From: an uncultured virus (IMG/VR IMGVR_UViG_3300019458_000025)
Taxonomy: Duplodnaviria > Heunggongvirae > Uroviricota > Caudoviricetes
Length of the DNA stretch: 20,000 bases
Direction: 5' to 3' (one strand)
Virus record (IMG/VR): IMGVR_UViG_3300019458_000025
Part shown: positions 1,938 through 20,000 of the stretch, in pieces
How the letters are laid out: every line of letters begins with the position of its first letter
Position numbering within the stretch: the stretch's first letter is position 1
Notes under the pieces: generated by a model
Told to the model about the DNA's origin: nothing
Databases searched by the model: none
What the model saw: the letters and a program-made list of their open reading frames with translations, nothing else
Translations under genes and position numbers: made by a program

Positions 1938-2798
1938 CTACAGGGCCGGTCCGAGCAGCGCCGCCCTTCGTTCGTCTTCGAATCGCCCGGTCGTCAACGG
2001 TTCGGAGCATGCCAGGCAGGAGACTTCGTACTCCACACGGATTCCGTAGAATACGGCCTCGCCGAACGAGGTCTTCTCCTTACGGACCGTCCGGCCTACG
2101 TTCGTGTCCTCCGCGGTCATCGACCGCGCGTCGATCTTTTCCCGTTCGGCCTTTTCGAACTCGTTCTCGTAGCGCTTCCGGCCCCGTTTGATGCATTTCA
2201 GACATCCGCCGGAGACGACTTCGGTACGGGCGATGGCTCTCCGGTGACGCGCGCAGAAGGCGACGGCGTCGCCCTTTCGGCTCCCGGCTTGAGCGCCGGT
2301 CCTGCGAGGCTTCCTGGGAACGAGATGCGTTACCCCGTCCGGCCAAACGATACCTCCCGAGATCGCATCGCGGAAACACCTCGGGCACCCTCCGTCCTCG
2401 ATATCCCTCTCGGTGAAGACCTCGAACGTGTGGTTCGAGCAGGTCGCGACGAACTCCCCGTATTCGCCGTCCGAGATCTTCATCTGGCGCGGTTTTTTGA
2501 AGCGCCGTATATGGGAAATACCGGCCTGGCCGTTCGGGATCGTCAAGCGTCCGGGCTCTCGGGGAGGAGTGGGGTAGACGTTGGCTTTGGAGCAGTCGTG
2601 GGAACAGATCTCCTTGCCGTGATCGCGCGAGAATCTGCTCCGTGCCAGGACAAAAACGGCTGCACAACGCCCGTAGGTGCAGATGCATTCGACTTCGACG
2701 ACCGCGTGGACGACGCCTTTCTTATCGACCGAGATGTCCGTGACGAGAGGAAATCCGTCTTCGAGGGCGAGGCAGTTGGCGCACTGGGGGCATCGCAT
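1938..2798 (-). CDS. Multi-Zn-finger phage protein
   Basis: 286 aa; MRCPQC start, several CxxC/CxxH pairs, C-terminal FYG..V..EVSCLAC; abuts upstream TAG. Confidence 0.8.
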   Translation of the reverse strand: MRCPQCANCLALEDGFPLVTDISVDKKGVVHAVVEVECICTYGRCAAVFVLARSRFSRDHGKEICSHDCSKANVYPTPPREPGRLTIPNGQAGISHIRRFKKPRQMKISDGEYGEFVATCSNHTFEVFTERDIEDGGCPRCFRDAISGGIVWPDGVTHLVPRKPRRTGAQAGSRKGDAVAFCARHRRAIARTEVVSGGCLKCIKRGRKRYENEFEKAEREKIDARSMTAEDTNVGRTVRKEKTSFGEAVFYGIRVEYEVSCLACSEPLTTGRFEDERRAALLGPAL

Positions 2799-3806: not shown

Positions 3807-4112
3807 CTACGCCTTGTTGTAGCCCTCGACTCCACGGGCCTCCCGGTCGGCCTTGCGATGGCTCAGCCAATGAAGGGCCTCTTCCAGCATCGTGATCGCC
3901 AGAGAATTCTCCCGACACCGGAAGGGAGCGCCCTCGCGGTTGAAGCCGTTCAGCCGGTCGATCAGGATGCGAACCACATCGGTAATCTGGCATCCGTTCA
4001 CGCCAAACTCCTTCACCGGCCCGAGTTGGAACTTGATCTTGATGTGCTCGCGCTCGATCAGAGCGGGGCTTCCGTCCATCTGCTCCTGCGCCTTCTCGCG
4101 GTCGTCCATCAT
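3807..4112 (-). CDS. tad1: Tad1/Acb2-like anti-defence nucleotide-sponge protein
   Basis: IKFQLG...G....VVRILIDRLNGF...PFRCRENSLAITMLEEALHWL..R..DR..RGVEG.NK follows the Tad1 pattern (IKFQxG..DRL..F..PF..REN..A...EEAL.W..R..DR..R.V.G) as recalled; GGAG SD before ATGATG. Confidence 0.8.
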   Translation of the reverse strand: MMDDREKAQEQMDGSPALIEREHIKIKFQLGPVKEFGVNGCQITDVVRILIDRLNGFNREGAPFRCRENSLAITMLEEALHWLSHRKADREARGVEGYNKA

Positions 4113-4122
4113 CTGCTCCGAA

Positions 4123-4311
4123 TCATTGTTCAGTGCCCTTGCGCAACCTCTTTTGTGCGGGACGATTTTTCCGCTCTTCTGCGAGCTTGTAAAATTCATC
4201 GCACATTCTCGGAAATGCGCCAAAGACGACCCGCGTTCGGCACCAATCACAGCTATCGACGTGCGCCTGTTGCTTACGAGTCGGCTTAGGGCCAGAATAA
4301 AAGCCAGCCAT
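4123..4311 (-). CDS. Small hypothetical protein (H..CDWC...C)
   Basis: 62 aa; GGAGG SD. Confidence 0.65.
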   Translation of the reverse strand: MAGFYSGPKPTRKQQAHVDSCDWCRTRVVFGAFPRMCDEFYKLAEERKNRPAQKRLRKGTEQ

Positions 4312-4325
4312 TCAACCCTCCGTGC

Positions 4326-4607
4326 CTATTGCGCCTCTACGCGCATTTCTTCCGGAACGCTCCGAGTGTTCCACCAGTTGACTGCCGCCGTCTCGTCACG
4401 GGCACTTGGGCCACTCGCCCCACACACCCTGCATATCACCCAGCAAAGGCCACCCGCCGCTGTTCCAGAATCACACACGTACCCGTTTCGCTGTTTGCAG
4501 AACGCGCACGCTTCCAATCGCAGATCACGCTTGGGCCCGATCTCGCGCGAACGTGACATCCTGCTCCTCTTCATCGAGCGCCGACGCTGGCCGTTGACAA
4601 TAGACAT
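4326..4607 (-). CDS. Lar-family restriction alleviation-like Zn-ribbon protein
   Basis: LEACAFC...VICRVCGASGP...AAVNWWNTR matches the Lar_restr_allev pattern (CPFC..CxxCGAxGP..A...WNxR); alternative start at 4559. Confidence 0.75.
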   Translation of the reverse strand: MSIVNGQRRRSMKRSRMSRSREIGPKRDLRLEACAFCKQRNGYVCDSGTAAGGLCWVICRVCGASGPSARDETAAVNWWNTRSVPEEMRVEAQ

Positions 4608-10640: not shown

Positions 10641-10967
10641 CTAGCGGTGCTGCCCGAAGCAGTCCGAGCAGTAGACCGGGCGGTCTCCCCGGGGCTTGAA
10701 CGGAACGCGCGCTTCCTTCCCGCAGTCGGCGCAGACCGCGGTGTGGTATTCGCGCGGACCGGTCCGGTCGCGCGCCGGACCCCGATCGCCGCCGCCCTGC
10801 CGATCGCCGCCTCCGCGCTGCTTCTTCGCCTCGCGGCAGGGCTTGCAGCGCTTGGGTTCGTTGCTGAAGCCGAGCTTCGCGAAATGCTCCTGTTCCCCGG
10901 CCGTGAACGTGAACGCCGCCTGGCAATCGACGCACTGCAACTCCTTGTCCGTGTACGCTTCGGGCAT
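10641..10967 (-). CDS. Zinc-ribbon (zf-trcl-like) plus CxxC-x17-CxxC domain protein
   Basis: DKELQCVDC..FTFTAGEQ..F...GF.NEPKRC..CR and AVCADCG....VPFKP...RPVYCSDCF; GGAGG SD. Confidence 0.9.
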   Translation of the reverse strand: MPEAYTDKELQCVDCQAAFTFTAGEQEHFAKLGFSNEPKRCKPCREAKKQRGGGDRQGGGDRGPARDRTGPREYHTAVCADCGKEARVPFKPRGDRPVYCSDCFGQHR

Positions 10968-11043
10968 GGCCCTTCCTCCGTTAGATGCCGCTGGGAACTC
11001 CGGAAACGTCCGAGGCCCCTTGAGGCATGATTAAACTATTTCG

Positions 11044-11304
11044 TCACCGCCAATGCCACGCGATATTGCCCATCCGGTTGAGCTTCTCGCGCATCCACTT
11101 CTCGATCAGCTTCCAGAACGGACCCCGACGCCACCACGGCGCTTGTAGATGCCGGACGTATTCCCGGATGAAGTCTCCAGCGGGTGCCTCATGTCGCTCC
11201 ATCTTGATCGTGATCCTGGGCTTTCCTTCGACGTTCACGAGCACCGCGGGGACGTCCTCGATCGCCCCGGTCGCCCAACGAGTCTCCCATTCGGTGATGG
11301 TCAT
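11044..11304 (-). CDS. Hypothetical protein
   Basis: 86 aa, GGAGG SD, TGATG overlap. Confidence 0.65.
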   Translation of the reverse strand: MTITEWETRWATGAIEDVPAVLVNVEGKPRITIKMERHEAPAGDFIREYVRHLQAPWWRRGPFWKLIEKWMREKLNRMGNIAWHWR

Positions 11305-12035
11305 CACGCCTCCTCGGCTTTCGGTGCATGGAGCGTACCGACGTAGACTGCGATGACACCGAAACCGCCGAATGGCTCCGGATCGCCCGGCGCCCCGACT
11401 TCGAGGAAGAAGCATTCGGTCGCCCGGATCTTCCTGGGCGCGGTCCAGGACACGCACGGAAGCTTCCGTCCGTTGACGAGCGCGAGAAGATCCTTCGCGC
11501 GGTCCCGGTCATAGGGGTGCGCCGGTTCAGGAAGCGGGATGTGCCGGACGTCCTCCGGGGCGGCGAGCTTCGTGTGGACGCTCTGGCCGAAGTGGTCCAC
11601 GACGCCGCCGAGCGGATACCAGCCATCCCGTTCGAGAGGCGTCGCGATGCGCCTGAGCCTTTCGTCGTCCTCCGGATGCTCGCAGTAGATCCGGATCTCC
11701 TCCCGCTCGAAGTGAAGGGGATAGGTCAACTGGGAGTCCATGGTCATGTTCGTCCAGGTCCAGTCCCGGTCGTGGTTAGGTCCCTTCCGGGGCGCCTTCC
11801 CCTGGCGTTCGAGGTTCCAGATCGAGGCCGTGAAGAACTCGGTGAGGCACGATTCGACCTTGGCGCGAGACCAGAGGAGCCCAGGGGTGTAGGCTTCGAG
11901 ATCCGGCTCCCTGTAGCGATAGGTCAGTTCGTTGACGACCTCAAGAATTCTCATCCGTTCGAGCGCGTCCATGTCCATGAGCCGGAGCGCCATGTTCCGC
12001 GCATCCCCCTGGAGGTCTTCCATTTTCATGGGCAT
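11304..12035 (-). CDS. Hypothetical protein
   Basis: 243 aa from MPMKMEDL with GAGGAGG SD. Confidence 0.8.
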   Translation of the reverse strand: MPMKMEDLQGDARNMALRLMDMDALERMRILEVVNELTYRYREPDLEAYTPGLLWSRAKVESCLTEFFTASIWNLERQGKAPRKGPNHDRDWTWTNMTMDSQLTYPLHFEREEIRIYCEHPEDDERLRRIATPLERDGWYPLGGVVDHFGQSVHTKLAAPEDVRHIPLPEPAHPYDRDRAKDLLALVNGRKLPCVSWTAPRKIRATECFFLEVGAPGDPEPFGGFGVIAVYVGTLHAPKAEEA

Positions 12036-12049
12036 TGGACCCTCCTCTC

Positions 12050-12394
12050 TTAGCTCGTGACCTGGATCGCCGACGTGACGAGCATTTCGTGGACCGCGGC
12101 GGCGTGGCAGTCGTGCAGATAGGCGCCGACGTGCGCGCGGTGGCAGTAGCGACCGGTCGCGTCCCGGACCAGTTCCTGGCCCATCTCGCAGCGCTTGCAG
12201 ATCCTCGGGATGAGGTAGTGACGCTCGTGGTCGCGCACGTTCTGGTTGAGATGGAGGAGCGCCTGTCCGACGCGGCATCGGAGGCTTGCCGTGGGTTCGC
12301 CGCGTTCGCAGGGACCCCCGTTGACCCCGGCCGTGCAGAGGTCGTCGTGGAATCTGCGGATGATCTCGAACCAGTCAGTTCCTTGTTCGGGCAC
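12050..12394 (-). CDS. His/Cys-rich hypothetical protein
   Basis: 114 aa, GTG start with GAGGGG SD. Confidence 0.7.
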   Translation of the reverse strand: MPEQGTDWFEIIRRFHDDLCTAGVNGGPCERGEPTASLRCRVGQALLHLNQNVRDHERHYLIPRICKRCEMGQELVRDATGRYCHRAHVGAYLHDCHAAAVHEMLVTSAIQVTS

Positions 12395-12418: not shown

Positions 12419-12637
12419 TCAACGGCGGCTGTACATCAACGCGACAAGAACGGACGGCACCGTCATGATGAAGCCCATTGCGGCCCACTTGATCCGGACC
12501 GGGCTCTCGGCGAACCAGGACAAGAACCTGAAGAGCACGAGGAGGAGTACCAGGAGGATCGGGACTCCGATCGAGCACCACACCCCGATCGTGCCGCTCC
12601 GGAGTTCCCGGTCGTTCACGCCTGCCCGGCCATTCAT
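12419..12637 (-). CDS. Small membrane protein (2 TM)
   Basis: ATGA overlap; two hydrophobic segments and a basic C-terminus. Confidence 0.7.
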   Translation of the reverse strand: MNGRAGVNDRELRSGTIGVWCSIGVPILLVLLLVLFRFLSWFAESPVRIKWAAMGFIMTVPSVLVALMYSRR

Positions 12638-13377
12638 GCCGCGCTCCCGCGAAGCCCTCGGACCTGAAGCACCCAGTCGTTCAGGAACCCGCGATCCCCC
12701 TCCGCCGGGATCGGCCAGGGTTTCATGCCGTCGATCTCGTTGATGAGCGAGAGCGTCGTCTCGACGATCCGCTCCTTGGACCACTCGCTCCGCCGGATCT
12801 GCATGAGGATGTCGCGCTCGCCGCCTTCCTTCCAGACGAGAGGCGGTTGGCCCTTGGCGATCCGGCGCGCGTCCCAGCCCAGCCGGATCATGTGGTAGGC
12901 CCACTTCTCGTTGTATTCGCCGCCCTTCGTGTGGAGACCTCCCTTTCCCCCGTGGGCCGAGAACTTCTTCAGTTGGCCCTGCATGTACCCGAGGTACTGC
13001 TTGACCGATTCGGCTGTCAGGAAGCGCTGGCGCTCCTTCCGGAGGGGCTCCCATTTCGGGTCCGCCCAATAGAGCCGGTCGGTGAAGAGCATCTCGATGA
13101 TGCCCGGATTGCCCTTGAGGAGGAGGTTCGCGAACTTCCCGACCTCGTGGACCTGGTAGTCCGGCTTCTGGGCTTCCGGGTTGTCGATCGTGTCCGGGGG
13201 CGGCGAGAGCCCGAGGAGGTCGTGGTTGAAGGCCACGTAGACGGCCACGTAGTCGATGTCGCTCGTCTCGATCTGGGTGTTGTGGCTCCAGGAGCCCCAG
13301 ATCTTGGAGAAGATCGTCCAACCGCGGAGCATCGGGGCCTTTTCGAGCCAGCCGGTGGGGTTCAGATCCTTAGACAT
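12634..13377 (-). CDS. Pol-beta-superfamily nucleotidyltransferase, RlaP/YcgL/NrdC.11-like
   Basis: WGSWSHNT...SDIDY motif, HEVGKF..LLLKGNP.IIEMLF, YLGY, K.AYH.IRL, IRR.E signature pattern. Confidence 0.9.
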   Translation of the reverse strand: MSKDLNPTGWLEKAPMLRGWTIFSKIWGSWSHNTQIETSDIDYVAVYVAFNHDLLGLSPPPDTIDNPEAQKPDYQVHEVGKFANLLLKGNPGIIEMLFTDRLYWADPKWEPLRKERQRFLTAESVKQYLGYMQGQLKKFSAHGGKGGLHTKGGEYNEKWAYHMIRLGWDARRIAKGQPPLVWKEGGERDILMQIRRSEWSKERIVETTLSLINEIDGMKPWPIPAEGDRGFLNDWVLQVRGLRGSAA

Positions 13378-13918
13378 TCGCCTTCCAGAATCCATCCAGT
13401 TCGAGTTGCCCGGATTCCACGAGGTCGAACTCCATGAGTTCCCTATAGTTGAATTTGTTGCGATACTCCAAGCATTCCTTGAGCGTTACCATGGGGCCGC
13501 CGAATCCGAGGAGTTCGCTTCCCCACTTGAGCAGAACGTATTTTGGGACACGCTCCTGTAGTTTTACGAAGCGAGCGCCAAGATCGGTCATTCTCCAGAA
13601 GCCGCTAGTTTTCTTCTCCGGCATCACGTTGATTCTTTCTCTCACGATGCCCCAGTACCTCAACTGAGCGAAGTCCCCTCCGGTTGTCGGAGCGCCAAGA
13701 TCGCGGACATGGAAGAATCCAATGCTTGGTTTCTGCCTGTGACACCTATAGAGGTTGATGAGGTAACGCGCCATAGCGCAAGACAGTTTGCGCTTATAGA
13801 TCTTGAGAAGCCTCCCGCAGGATTCGCATCGGCTCGCGTCGAACTTACCTGGCTCTTTGTACCACGGTCTGCTGTTGAACTGCCCGTCCGGAGGGATGAT
13901 TATTTCAGATTGGAGCAC
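13370..13918 (-). CDS. Conserved phage protein (CxxCG..K.YKRKL...GDFA.LRYWG...SG.WR.T..G), wHTH-like
   Basis: 182 aa; first gene after P3; visibly more AT-rich codons. Confidence 0.8.
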   Translation of the reverse strand: MLQSEIIIPPDGQFNSRPWYKEPGKFDASRCESCGRLLKIYKRKLSCAMARYLINLYRCHRQKPSIGFFHVRDLGAPTTGGDFAQLRYWGIVRERINVMPEKKTSGFWRMTDLGARFVKLQERVPKYVLLKWGSELLGFGGPMVTLKECLEYRNKFNYRELMEFDLVESGQLELDGFWKANV

Positions 13919-18290: not shown

Positions 18291-18542
18291 TCATCGGGAG
18301 GCTCCCGCGCTGTCGAGCCTGGTTTCGGCGCCCTTCACCGCTACGGCTATCTTCCGGTTGGCGGCGCGCAGTTCGTAACCTGTCCTCCTGAACGGGCTCT
18401 CGATCACGTCGCAGTGAGCGACCCGGTGCCCGAGGCCCCATCCGTGGAGATGCCACTTTCTACAGAAGGGACACCATGCTTTAAGGCCATGGCCGTCCTT
18501 TCGGAGATAGGCCAATAGCACCGGGAATCGCTGTTTCGGCAT
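18291..18542 (-). CDS. Conserved phage Zn-binding protein
   Basis: WCPFCRKWHLHG..GHRVAHC...SPF...GY; GGAG SD. Confidence 0.75.
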   Translation of the reverse strand: MPKQRFPVLLAYLRKDGHGLKAWCPFCRKWHLHGWGLGHRVAHCDVIESPFRRTGYELRAANRKIAVAVKGAETRLDSAGASR

Positions 18543-18558
18543 AGCCGCTCCGTTTCCG

Positions 18559-19326
18559 TTACTTCCTCTTCACCCCGAGAGTCCTCTCGTAGTCCTCGAA
18601 CCTCATCTTCGCGATCGCCTTCCGGTCGGCGGTGCGGACGACGACGCCTTCAGCGCGACCTTGTCCTTCGTCCAAATGGACCCTGGAAATAGAGAACTGG
18701 GTCAGCCACTGCAAGGTGTCCTTGAGGGAAACGGGCGGCGGCTCGAATCCGGCAATCGGCTTCGTGAACCACGCGGGAACGCGCTTGACCGCCTGAAGCG
18801 GCAGTATAAGTTCCTGGACTCCAGACATGGGTGGTAGAAAGTCCTGACCGCCATGGTCACGCCAACTGGCGATTTGCTCGATCGGCTGCTCCAGGATGGA
18901 GAGGGGAACGCGGGCGATATCGAAGAGGCGCGCTCCCTTCACGCCCTTCTCCGTGTACTGCTTGGCGCCCGGGAGTCCAGTGCCGTAGACCTCGAAGAAC
19001 CAAACGAGCGCGGCATCGCCGGGCGCCTCCGGCAGCGTCTCCGCGATCGGCTCAAGGACGGTCTTGATGTCATAAGTGGTGTTCCAGACGAGGTCGCCTT
19101 GAGCAAACAGGAACTCCTCGCGGCTCCCGATCAGGTACCTTCGAGGGCCGTTCGGAAGAACGACGATCCGGCCGTTCGTGCCGTCCACTTTTTCGGTGAT
19201 CTGAAGCGCTTCACCGGCCGGGAACGGCACGCGGACGATGTCGTTTAGTCGTCCGCGGTCCCCCATCTCGTGGTAGGTCTCGATGCCCGGGTACTTGGTC
19301 GCGCTATTTAGCTTCGCCAGGTCCAT
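18559..19326 (-). CDS. RNA ligase (Rnl2-like nucleotidyltransferase domain)
   Basis: 255 aa from MDLAKLNSATKYP; motif I TEKVDGTN, Ia GSR, III FEVYG, IIIa FDI, IV EGVVVR, V AKMR; GAGGAG SD. Confidence 0.88.
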   Translation of the reverse strand: MDLAKLNSATKYPGIETYHEMGDRGRLNDIVRVPFPAGEALQITEKVDGTNGRIVVLPNGPRRYLIGSREEFLFAQGDLVWNTTYDIKTVLEPIAETLPEAPGDAALVWFFEVYGTGLPGAKQYTEKGVKGARLFDIARVPLSILEQPIEQIASWRDHGGQDFLPPMSGVQELILPLQAVKRVPAWFTKPIAGFEPPPVSLKDTLQWLTQFSISRVHLDEGQGRAEGVVVRTADRKAIAKMRFEDYERTLGVKRK

Positions 19327-19348
19327 AGTTCTCCTCGTAGTTCTCCTC
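19326..19348 (-). repeat. Tandem duplication of the ligase ribosome-binding site
   Basis: GAGGAGAACTA occurs twice on minus (19338-19348, 19326-19336), period 12. Confidence 0.85.
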
Positions 19349-19382
19349 TGCCAACCGCGTCGTTGTGCTCCTCGATCTTCGT

Positions 19383-19972
19383 GTCGCAGGATCAAGGCCC
19401 CTGCGATGGCATCGCCGAAAGACGATCCGCCAAGCTGACATGGTGCCATCGTCGCTGGAACTAGGCCCCAGCGCTGGCTTTGCTCCTTTCGACGTCGAAC
19501 TTCCTCCTCGCTCTGATGATGTCGCGAGCACGGTACCCCCGCGCTGGCATTGCTCCGACCTAGAAGCAGCTTAAACCCCTGAGTAAGATGATGTCGCAGG
19601 CTTAAAACCCCTGCGCCGGTATTGCTACAAGAGGACTTGGCCGCATTCACGGACTTGGAGCTTCGTCGCGGGCTCTAAGCCCCCGCGCTGGCATTGCTCC
19701 GGCTGATGTTGTACCGAGCCGCGTAGAACGACGTGGTCGCAGGCTCTAAACCCCCGCGCCGGTATTGCCACCAAGCTGACCAAGGCGAGCATTGTCGCGA
19801 GCACGAAGCCCCCGCGCTGGCATTGCTCGTGACCCAGGACTTCTTCTTGTCGTTCCTCCAGTGGAGATCACGGTGGAGTCGCGAGCACGAAGCCCCCGCG
19901 CTGGCATTGCTCCGGCTCGAAAGGAGGTCACTTGACGTCGCAGGCTCTCAACCCCTGCGCCGGTATTGACAC
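19383..19972 (-). CRISPR. CRISPR-like array with heterogeneous 36-bp repeats (type V-like hairpin/pseudoknot), possibly truncated by the window end
   Basis: Nine repeats starting on + at 19383, 19451, 19521, 19593, 19665, 19736, 19794, 19878 and 19937; consensus GTCGC(A/G/T)RG-N6-RCCCC(T/C/A)GCGCYGGYATTGCTMC; unique spacers of 32, 34, 36, 36, 35, 22, 48 and 23 nt. Confidence 0.88.
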
Positions 19973-20000
19973 CACAGGGACAATTTCCTCGTGCGGACGG

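Follow-up and report, generated by a model that had tools for sequence, protein, structure and literature searches.

The stretch of DNA analysed here (the window; 20,000 nucleotides of the IMG/VR record IMGVR_UViG_3300019458_000025) ends in a series of 36-nt direct repeats, which a repeat search of the window recovered at 19383-19972 as a single family of nine copies. Every plausible gene of the window is encoded on the minus strand. The features discussed below are as follows, with differences counted against the uniform repeat of the array found beyond base 20000:

12634-13395, minus strand: RlaP-type nucleotidyltransferase (Pfam 2.5e-19; PHROG 388, 7.7e-34)
18559..19326, minus strand: RNA ligase of 255 aa (Pfam RNA_ligase 1.5e-08, 35.4 bits against a cut-off of 27; PHROG 548)
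19383..19972, minus strand: nine 36-nt repeats and eight spacers, very probably the divergent trailer (leader-distal end) of a type V-M array; transcription order R9 to R1
19383..19418, minus strand: R1, the last repeat and among the most divergent; 12 differences, stem and 3' GCGAC intact
19451..19486, minus strand: R2; 7 differences, stem U-A pair with both sides changed
19521..19556, minus strand: R3, uniform type; loop changed
19593..19628, minus strand: R4, 'A' type; stem A-U pair replacing G-C
19665..19700, minus strand: R5, a mosaic; 5' part like the uniform repeat, loop like the 'A' type
19736..19771, minus strand: R6, 'A' type; stem G·U pair, on the minus strand only
19794..19829, minus strand: R7; 1 difference, with a 48-nt spacer before it and a 22-nt spacer after it
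19878..19913, minus strand: R8; identical to the uniform repeat beyond the window (0 differences)
19937..19972, minus strand: R9, the first divergent repeat, a variant of 'A' type; 12 differences
19973..20000, minus strand: the final 28 nt of a spacer, 36 nt long, that runs across the window edge; the overlapping contigs L023 and L014 show it in full and carry on with the uniform array

The repeats start at 19383, 19451, 19521, 19593, 19665, 19736, 19794, 19878 and 19937, with start-to-start spacings of 68, 70, 72, 72, 71, 58, 84 and 59. The eight spacers are accordingly 32, 34, 36, 36, 35, 22, 48 and 23 nt long, five of them within the regular range of 32-36 nt, and 28 nt are left to the window end. 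All nine repeats are mutually different, R7 and R8 differing solely at the last plus-strand base. A unit-by-unit listing thus confirmed what had been described from the letters of this stretch, namely nine unlike 36-bp repeats separated by spacers of 22-48 nt. Near-identical repeats with spacers of similar length, by which a CRISPR is recognized, are not found in the nine window units alone but are found in their continuation in L023. Under the covariance model (R1) of the repeat family, all nine window repeats score 40.8-52 bits, eight of the nine being in the training set of the model. The repeat is not a chance pattern, as the same repeat family builds arrays in other metagenome and viral contigs.

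Two other kinds of element were considered for these units. tRNA-like units, suggested by a period of ~70 nt beside RNA-repair genes, were ruled out, as ARAGORN found 0 genes. A repeat peptide, suggested by the GGAG..ATG of the minus-strand repeat, was rejected because the spacings are not multiples of three and stops occur in all three frames. Rfam gave no known RNA family in the array, the sole match being a chance one to mir-42 (E 0.22) outside it. Consensus scans for promoters and terminators in the array, the leader and the gap between R1 and the ligase gene gave nothing above shuffles, and the covariance model, run with filters off, found no solitary repeat copies outside the array in the window or L023. 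The expectation that standard finders may miss such an array was partly right: Tandem Repeats Finder reports nothing here, but a comparable array in KX853510 has been annotated as CRISPR over its whole length.

Read on the minus strand, the repeat is GGAGCAATGCCAGCGCGGGGGCTTCGTGCTCGCGAC, with a hairpin at its 3' end, immediately preceding the spacer. Over the nine repeats, the 6-bp stem (repeat positions 14-19/29-34) forms pairs in all 54 cells when read on the minus strand, against 50 of 54 when read on the plus strand, where four G·U cells turn into A·C mismatches. Because the G·U pairs make all stem cells pair on the minus strand and not on the plus strand, the array RNA is assigned to the minus strand; the strand on which the sequence-only reading had written the repeats was the wrong one. 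At stem pair 17-31, the nine window repeats have GC four times, AU three times, GU once and UA once, and at stem pair 18-30 they have GC six times and GU three times. The observed values of the window stem statistic were reached by 1 of 500 shuffles. An alignment of the repeat family (35 distinct repeats) showed changes on both sides in five of seven tested stem pairs, with a score that 0 of 500 shuffles reached. Every trailer repeat in the window keeps the 6-bp stem, the invariant 3' GCGAC and a spacer of at least 22 nt. Variable columns make up 3 of 14 in the stem and 3' tail versus 16 of 22 elsewhere (Fisher p 0.005), and positions 1-4 are the most variable; in the structure of Cas12m2, crRNA nucleotides -36 to -30 were not modelled (PMC10442227). 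The earlier suggestion that the repeats are selected for structure is upheld by these data, since the changes between repeats preserve the RNA stem.

Scanning of metagenome contigs with the repeat pattern gave 17 loci, several of them with regular arrays, and it is such an array that continues the window. The last 81 nt of the window are 100% identical to positions 1-81 of L023, the first 10.6 kb of a 175,429-bp metagenome contig, and to both ends of another locus, L014. This overlap is made up of 28 nt of spacer, R9 and 17 nt of the next spacer, and therefore holds 45 nt of unique spacer sequence; R9 recurs unchanged as the last repeat of L023 and as the repeat at each end of L014. In minus-strand order, L023 contains a 579-aa ORF and a leader of 177 nt, then seven repeats that are identical and one that is nearly so, and finally the spacer that the window edge cuts, followed by R9; the spacers of its regular array measure 35-37 nt. 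The order of the locus is then cas12m, leader, uniform array, nine divergent repeats and RNA ligase gene. It had been stated that no two repeats were identical, which is true inside the window only. The proposal to inspect the flank beyond 20000 for more repeats and for a RuvC-type effector gene was fruitful, as both are present in the overlapping contig.

An independent assembly (run X1) gave a 33.7-kb contig over window positions 18500-19823 at a depth of 27.7 and a 7,965-nt contig, ending in repeat and leader, at a depth of 28.2. The 36-nt unitig of the uniform repeat had a depth of 378, which suggests about 13-14 copies per genome. The link between the window and cas12m is made by the 81-nt exact overlap and the matching depth, and not by one contiguous record. 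L014 (1-1080), which comes from the same metagenome as L023, has the trailer junction at both ends and 13 other spacers, versus seven in L023 (1-628). Two neighbouring spacers of L014 are near-identical. Either the array is variable in the population or it is longer than L023 shows, and the difference between the two loci is due either to spacer turnover without Cas1-Cas2 in sight or to internal duplication. No match to the window DNA was returned by INPHARED or IMG/VR, and the 18-nt repeat pattern gave nine single chance matches in IMG/VR, none with a full repeat.

The ORF upstream of the leader (L023:806-2545, minus strand, 579 aa), 177 nt from the first repeat, encodes a Cas12m-like protein. 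It matches the PADLOC Cas12u1 model at 4e-100, PDB 23vw_A ('Cas12m') at 1.2e-67 over residues 25-577 of 579 and the zinc-ribbon domain of Pfam's Cas12f1-like TNB at 4e-10; NCBIfam yields TnpB matches only, all sub-threshold. The true start of the protein is probably M14, which would give 566 aa, because its homologues begin with MPTLVY... Alignment gives the protein a canonical D-E-D triad in RuvC (D322, E485, D570), and the zinc ribbon consists of two CxxC pairs. The compact TnpB/Cas12-like RuvC effector that had been anticipated beyond base 20000 is therefore in place. Likewise, the claim that the window holds no cas gene was correct: none of its 43 ORFs matches a Cas model in PADLOC, and none of 40 ORFs does so in Pfam or PHROGs. 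Cas1, Cas2 and Cas4 are found neither among the 43 window ORFs nor among the 22 ORFs of L023 (about 30 kb covered). Such an absence is not anomalous, V-U loci being typically without adaptation genes (PMC11013384).

The preferred reading, to which a probability of about 0.87 is given, is that the nine repeats form the trailer of an array of type V-M (formerly V-U1), the cas12m-like gene, leader and uniform repeats of which lie just past the window. Directly observed are the anatomy of the array, its strand, the linkage to a Cas12m-like gene and the conservation of this architecture at other loci. As regards the last of these, a tblastn search of the window and loci L001-L029 with the L023 effector found homologues of 26-42% identity in L019, L021, L016, L015 and L013, and a weak one in L012. 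The first five of these loci each have the gene ahead of a same-strand array of this repeat family, with a gap of about 170-200 nt. A Cas12m gene is present in six of the seven array-bearing metagenome loci with upstream room, L023 included; the array of L017/L029 has no Cas12m gene within 3.3 kb upstream. Around that array (L017 355-3609) are genes for a BsaWI-like restriction enzyme, an N6/N4 DNA methylase and a NikA-like mobilisation protein, a plasmid-like context.

In viral and plasmid collections, one effector homologue was found in INPHARED (50,697 records), in Virus Rctr197k (197 kb, Caudoviricetes), and 22 records of PLSDB had effector matches. A five-protein profile found effector relatives at 18 IMG/VR loci, the contigs reaching 210 kb in length. 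Downstream arrays were detected at 11 of these 18 loci by a k-mer script, and the covariance model added L031; of the six loci where no array was found, L041 and L046 end too soon to tell. A covariance-model search for gene association had been recommended; taken together, the searches tie the repeat family to Cas12m homologues in both metagenome and IMG/VR loci. The other loci share no genes with the window or L023.

Several of these loci have features of their own. In L013, a Cas12m homologue (10737-12359, minus strand) lies beside a three-repeat divergent array, and its C-terminal zinc ribbon and RuvC-III region are missing in the alignment; the locus is probably decaying. A solitary repeat-like unit is located just upstream of the cas12m start in L021 (7262-7297, minus strand, E 2.7e-4), and a weak one is seen in L041 (3848-3884, plus strand, E 0.077). 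L018 contains two full repeat units 768 nt apart (1468-1503 and 2272-2307, plus strand) and no array. Such solitary units recall the repeat-like regulatory units near cas genes (crRNA-like RNAs), which are likewise worn repeats with a preserved effector-binding fold, but which are situated upstream of cas genes or dispersed over the genome. In the IMG/VR locus L036, ten tandem 30-nt units (2149-2437, plus strand) precede the cas12m homologue by about 1.5 kb.

Divergent trailers recur among the related arrays. The array of Rctr197k has eight identical repeats followed by divergent ones, with spacings that include 47, 48, 62 and 232. L034 (IMG/VR) has five identical repeats and then nine different ones, with spacers of 24-40 nt; 9 of the 19 repeats of L048 depart from its first repeat, and irregular arrays are seen in L040, L043 and L044 as well. 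Over the stretch examined, the arrays of L032, L033, L042 and L047 are fully or almost uniform, 0-3 repeats in each being slightly altered. Of the stem cells in which a repeat has changed relative to the leader-proximal one, 11 of 11 in the window, 9 of 9 in L034 and 1 of 1 in Rctr197k still form a pair, as does 1 of 2 in L048, which has a shorter stem. The hairpin is thus never lost by the divergent trailer repeats in three of the four arrays measured, L048 being the exception.

In ordinary CRISPR arrays, it is usually the last one or two repeats that are degenerate. The present trailer resembles these in that the divergence is at the leader-distal end, but it differs in that nine or more repeats have changed and that the stem changes are all compensated or wobble. 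The 'A' and 'B' repeat types alternate in the window trailer, which simple ageing does not predict. This alternation, together with the mosaic R5, argues for exchange between repeats rather than simple ageing. Keyword searches of open-access main text found no description of hairpin-preserving long trailers in V-M arrays, and the retention of the hairpin by divergent trailer repeats is regarded as a mildly new point.

The sequence-only reading had offered a different account, in which the units are independently evolving guide-RNA genes that were not made by adaptation, are selected for structure and serve a phage effector. The continued pairing of all changed stem cells in the window, L034 and Rctr197k, the avoidance of the stem and 3' tail by variable columns and the lack of adaptation genes among the ORFs of the window and L023 would all fit such genes. 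However, the units continue the uniform array without a change of register or strand, and one of them, R8, is its very repeat. Five of the eight spacers have the regular length, and divergence rises with distance from the leader, as in ordinary arrays. The account is therefore improbable, and the units are instead taken to be the divergent leader-distal end of a normal array that continues in L023.

Less probable still is that the window repeats are an orphan decaying array unrelated to L023, joined to cas12m by an assembly artefact. The junction does lie within repeated sequence, and L014 shows branching of the assembly graph there; yet the overlap includes the 45 nt of unique spacer and the repeat variant R9, found nowhere else, the two depths agree in another assembly, and Cas12m homologues accompany the repeat family at other loci. 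An equally slight chance is given to RNA decoys, resembling the solitary repeats of anti-CRISPRs, that soak up host Cas12m by means of the retained protein-binding hairpin, as the cognate cas12m and a spacer-bearing uniform array are on the same element, and the species-representative genomes scanned with the repeat pattern gave three single matches and no array.

With the nine repeats as the trailer of a type V-M array, we infer transcription, processing, DNA binding without cleavage and a function of the trailer units along the following lines. Transcription would start from the leader and pass through the uniform array and the trailer toward the RNA ligase gene. By analogy with characterised Cas12m, the effector would grip the 3' hairpin of each repeat, and the transcript would be cut into crRNAs, each made up of a repeat-derived scaffold and about 20 nt of spacer. 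The crRNA of Cas12m has a 36-nt repeat-derived scaffold and a 20-nt guide and forms a 17-bp heteroduplex (PMC10442227), and the 36-nt repeat, the hairpin position and the strand found here fit that scaffold. The complex would then bind matching DNA flanked by a PAM and, without cutting it, block transcription or replication. Point changes, slight shifts in length and exchange between repeats would account for the divergence of the oldest units. Most trailer units could still give usable guides; even the spacers of 22 and 23 nt would suffice, because about 17-20 nt of guide are used. As for targets, three array stretches gave no match in INPHARED and, in PLSDB, one marginal plasmid match (E 0.02) and otherwise none. 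No self-targets were found in the window or in any analysed locus.

Among known systems, the closest is type V-M itself (Cas12m; MmCas12m and GoCas12m; PDB 23vw and 8pm4). The likeness extends to the effector of ~580 aa, which matches over its full length, the 36-nt repeat with a spacer-adjacent hairpin, the array downstream of the gene and the absence of adaptation genes nearby. The L023 effector differs in having the canonical D-E-D triad, a minority arrangement that is also non-cutting: Cas12m proteins with D-E-D, H-D-D and N-D-D triads all bind DNA and none cuts it, according to PMC11013384. By this analogy, the L023 effector is probably non-cutting. It may still cleave DNA, because its triad is canonical whereas those of the founding Cas12m proteins are altered. 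The locus differs further in its apparently phage-like rather than plasmid-like carrier and in its long divergent trailer. V-M systems on both plasmids and prophages have been described in print, more often on plasmids, and viral proteins that cluster with Cas12m/V-U1 have also been published (PMC12607003).

Virus Rctr197k (KX853510) offers the nearest parallel on a viral record. Its Cas12m-like gene, annotated as 'similar to transposase', is 31.6% identical to the L023 effector at 96% coverage and is directly followed by a 1.5-kb array, the divergent repeats of which keep the hairpin. Its repeat ends in GAGAC and not GCGAC, and it has no other genes in common with the window in the 13.7-kb stretch compared. 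Rctr197k has a second CRISPR (L030 1-888; KX853510 119281-121176) with four repeats of ~36 nt immediately after a 'transposase-like protein', which is possibly a second TnpB/Cas12-type system. The V-U variants and Cas12j/CasPhi of huge phages also combine a compact Cas12 with arrays lacking Cas1, Cas2 and Cas4 on genomes of ~200 kb (PMC7162821). Cas12j/CasPhi is another subtype, and the L023 protein is Cas12m-like by sequence. The locus is thus a further example of type V-M, and its effector class, the V-U arrays of phages and the mechanism of Cas12m are already known.

The carrier may plausibly be a phage. Taking the 33.7-kb and 175-kb contigs together, the element is at least about 209 kb, and relatives of its effector lie on 18 IMG/VR contigs and one Caudoviricetes record. 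Eight of 40 window ORFs have PHROGs matches, with no hallmark gene among them, and neither the 20-kb window nor the 10.6 kb of L023 yielded capsid, terminase, portal or tail genes. A tyrosine integrase is encoded in L023. A 405-aa ORF had no match in INPHARED. The matches above curated Pfam cut-offs in the window are DUF7352, AAA_23 (27.5 bits, cut-off 27), two treble-clef fingers, RlaP and RNA ligase. The two fingers are in a 108-aa protein (10641-10967, minus strand; zf_Tbcl 4.3e-20, zf_Tbcl_2 4.7e-20).

The RNA ligase gene, the downstream neighbour of the trailer, has its ATG 56 nt after R1, preceded by GAGGAG. The protein is closest to ligases of large phages, being 38-44% identical to those of Streptomyces and Nodularia phages of 146-185 kb, and no close relatives were found in IMG/VR. 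The gene for the RlaP-type nucleotidyltransferase lies 5 kb from it, and both are on the strand of the array. Together, the two look like an RNA-repair set, possibly directed against host defences that cut tRNA. The gene at 3807-4250 (minus strand) matches PHROG 2428 at 6.6e-25; its match to the Acb2/Tad1 hairpin is weak and falls short of the Pfam cut-off. The gene at 4326-4607 (minus strand) has a match to Lar-like restriction alleviation, also below the Pfam cut-off. Both are possible counter-defence genes.

What appeared to be a cas-less array of unlike guide genes is, on the preferred reading, the old end of a V-M locus that the window edge has truncated. It provides one more case of a compact Cas12m, probably unable to cut, that is carried by a large phage-like element and lies beside RNA-repair and likely counter-defence genes. 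A more tentative idea, which is considered unlikely though clearly less so than any of the alternatives above, is that the long trailers of adaptation-less Cas12m arrays on phage-like elements are a selected standing set of fixed guides and not the debris of decay, each old unit keeping a usable scaffold by way of the compensated stem changes and the invariant 3' end. If so, the trailer guides would give lasting, non-destructive silencing of host or rival genes, and only the leader end would turn over. The retention of the hairpin suggests that old guides may stay in use where new ones are not easily acquired.
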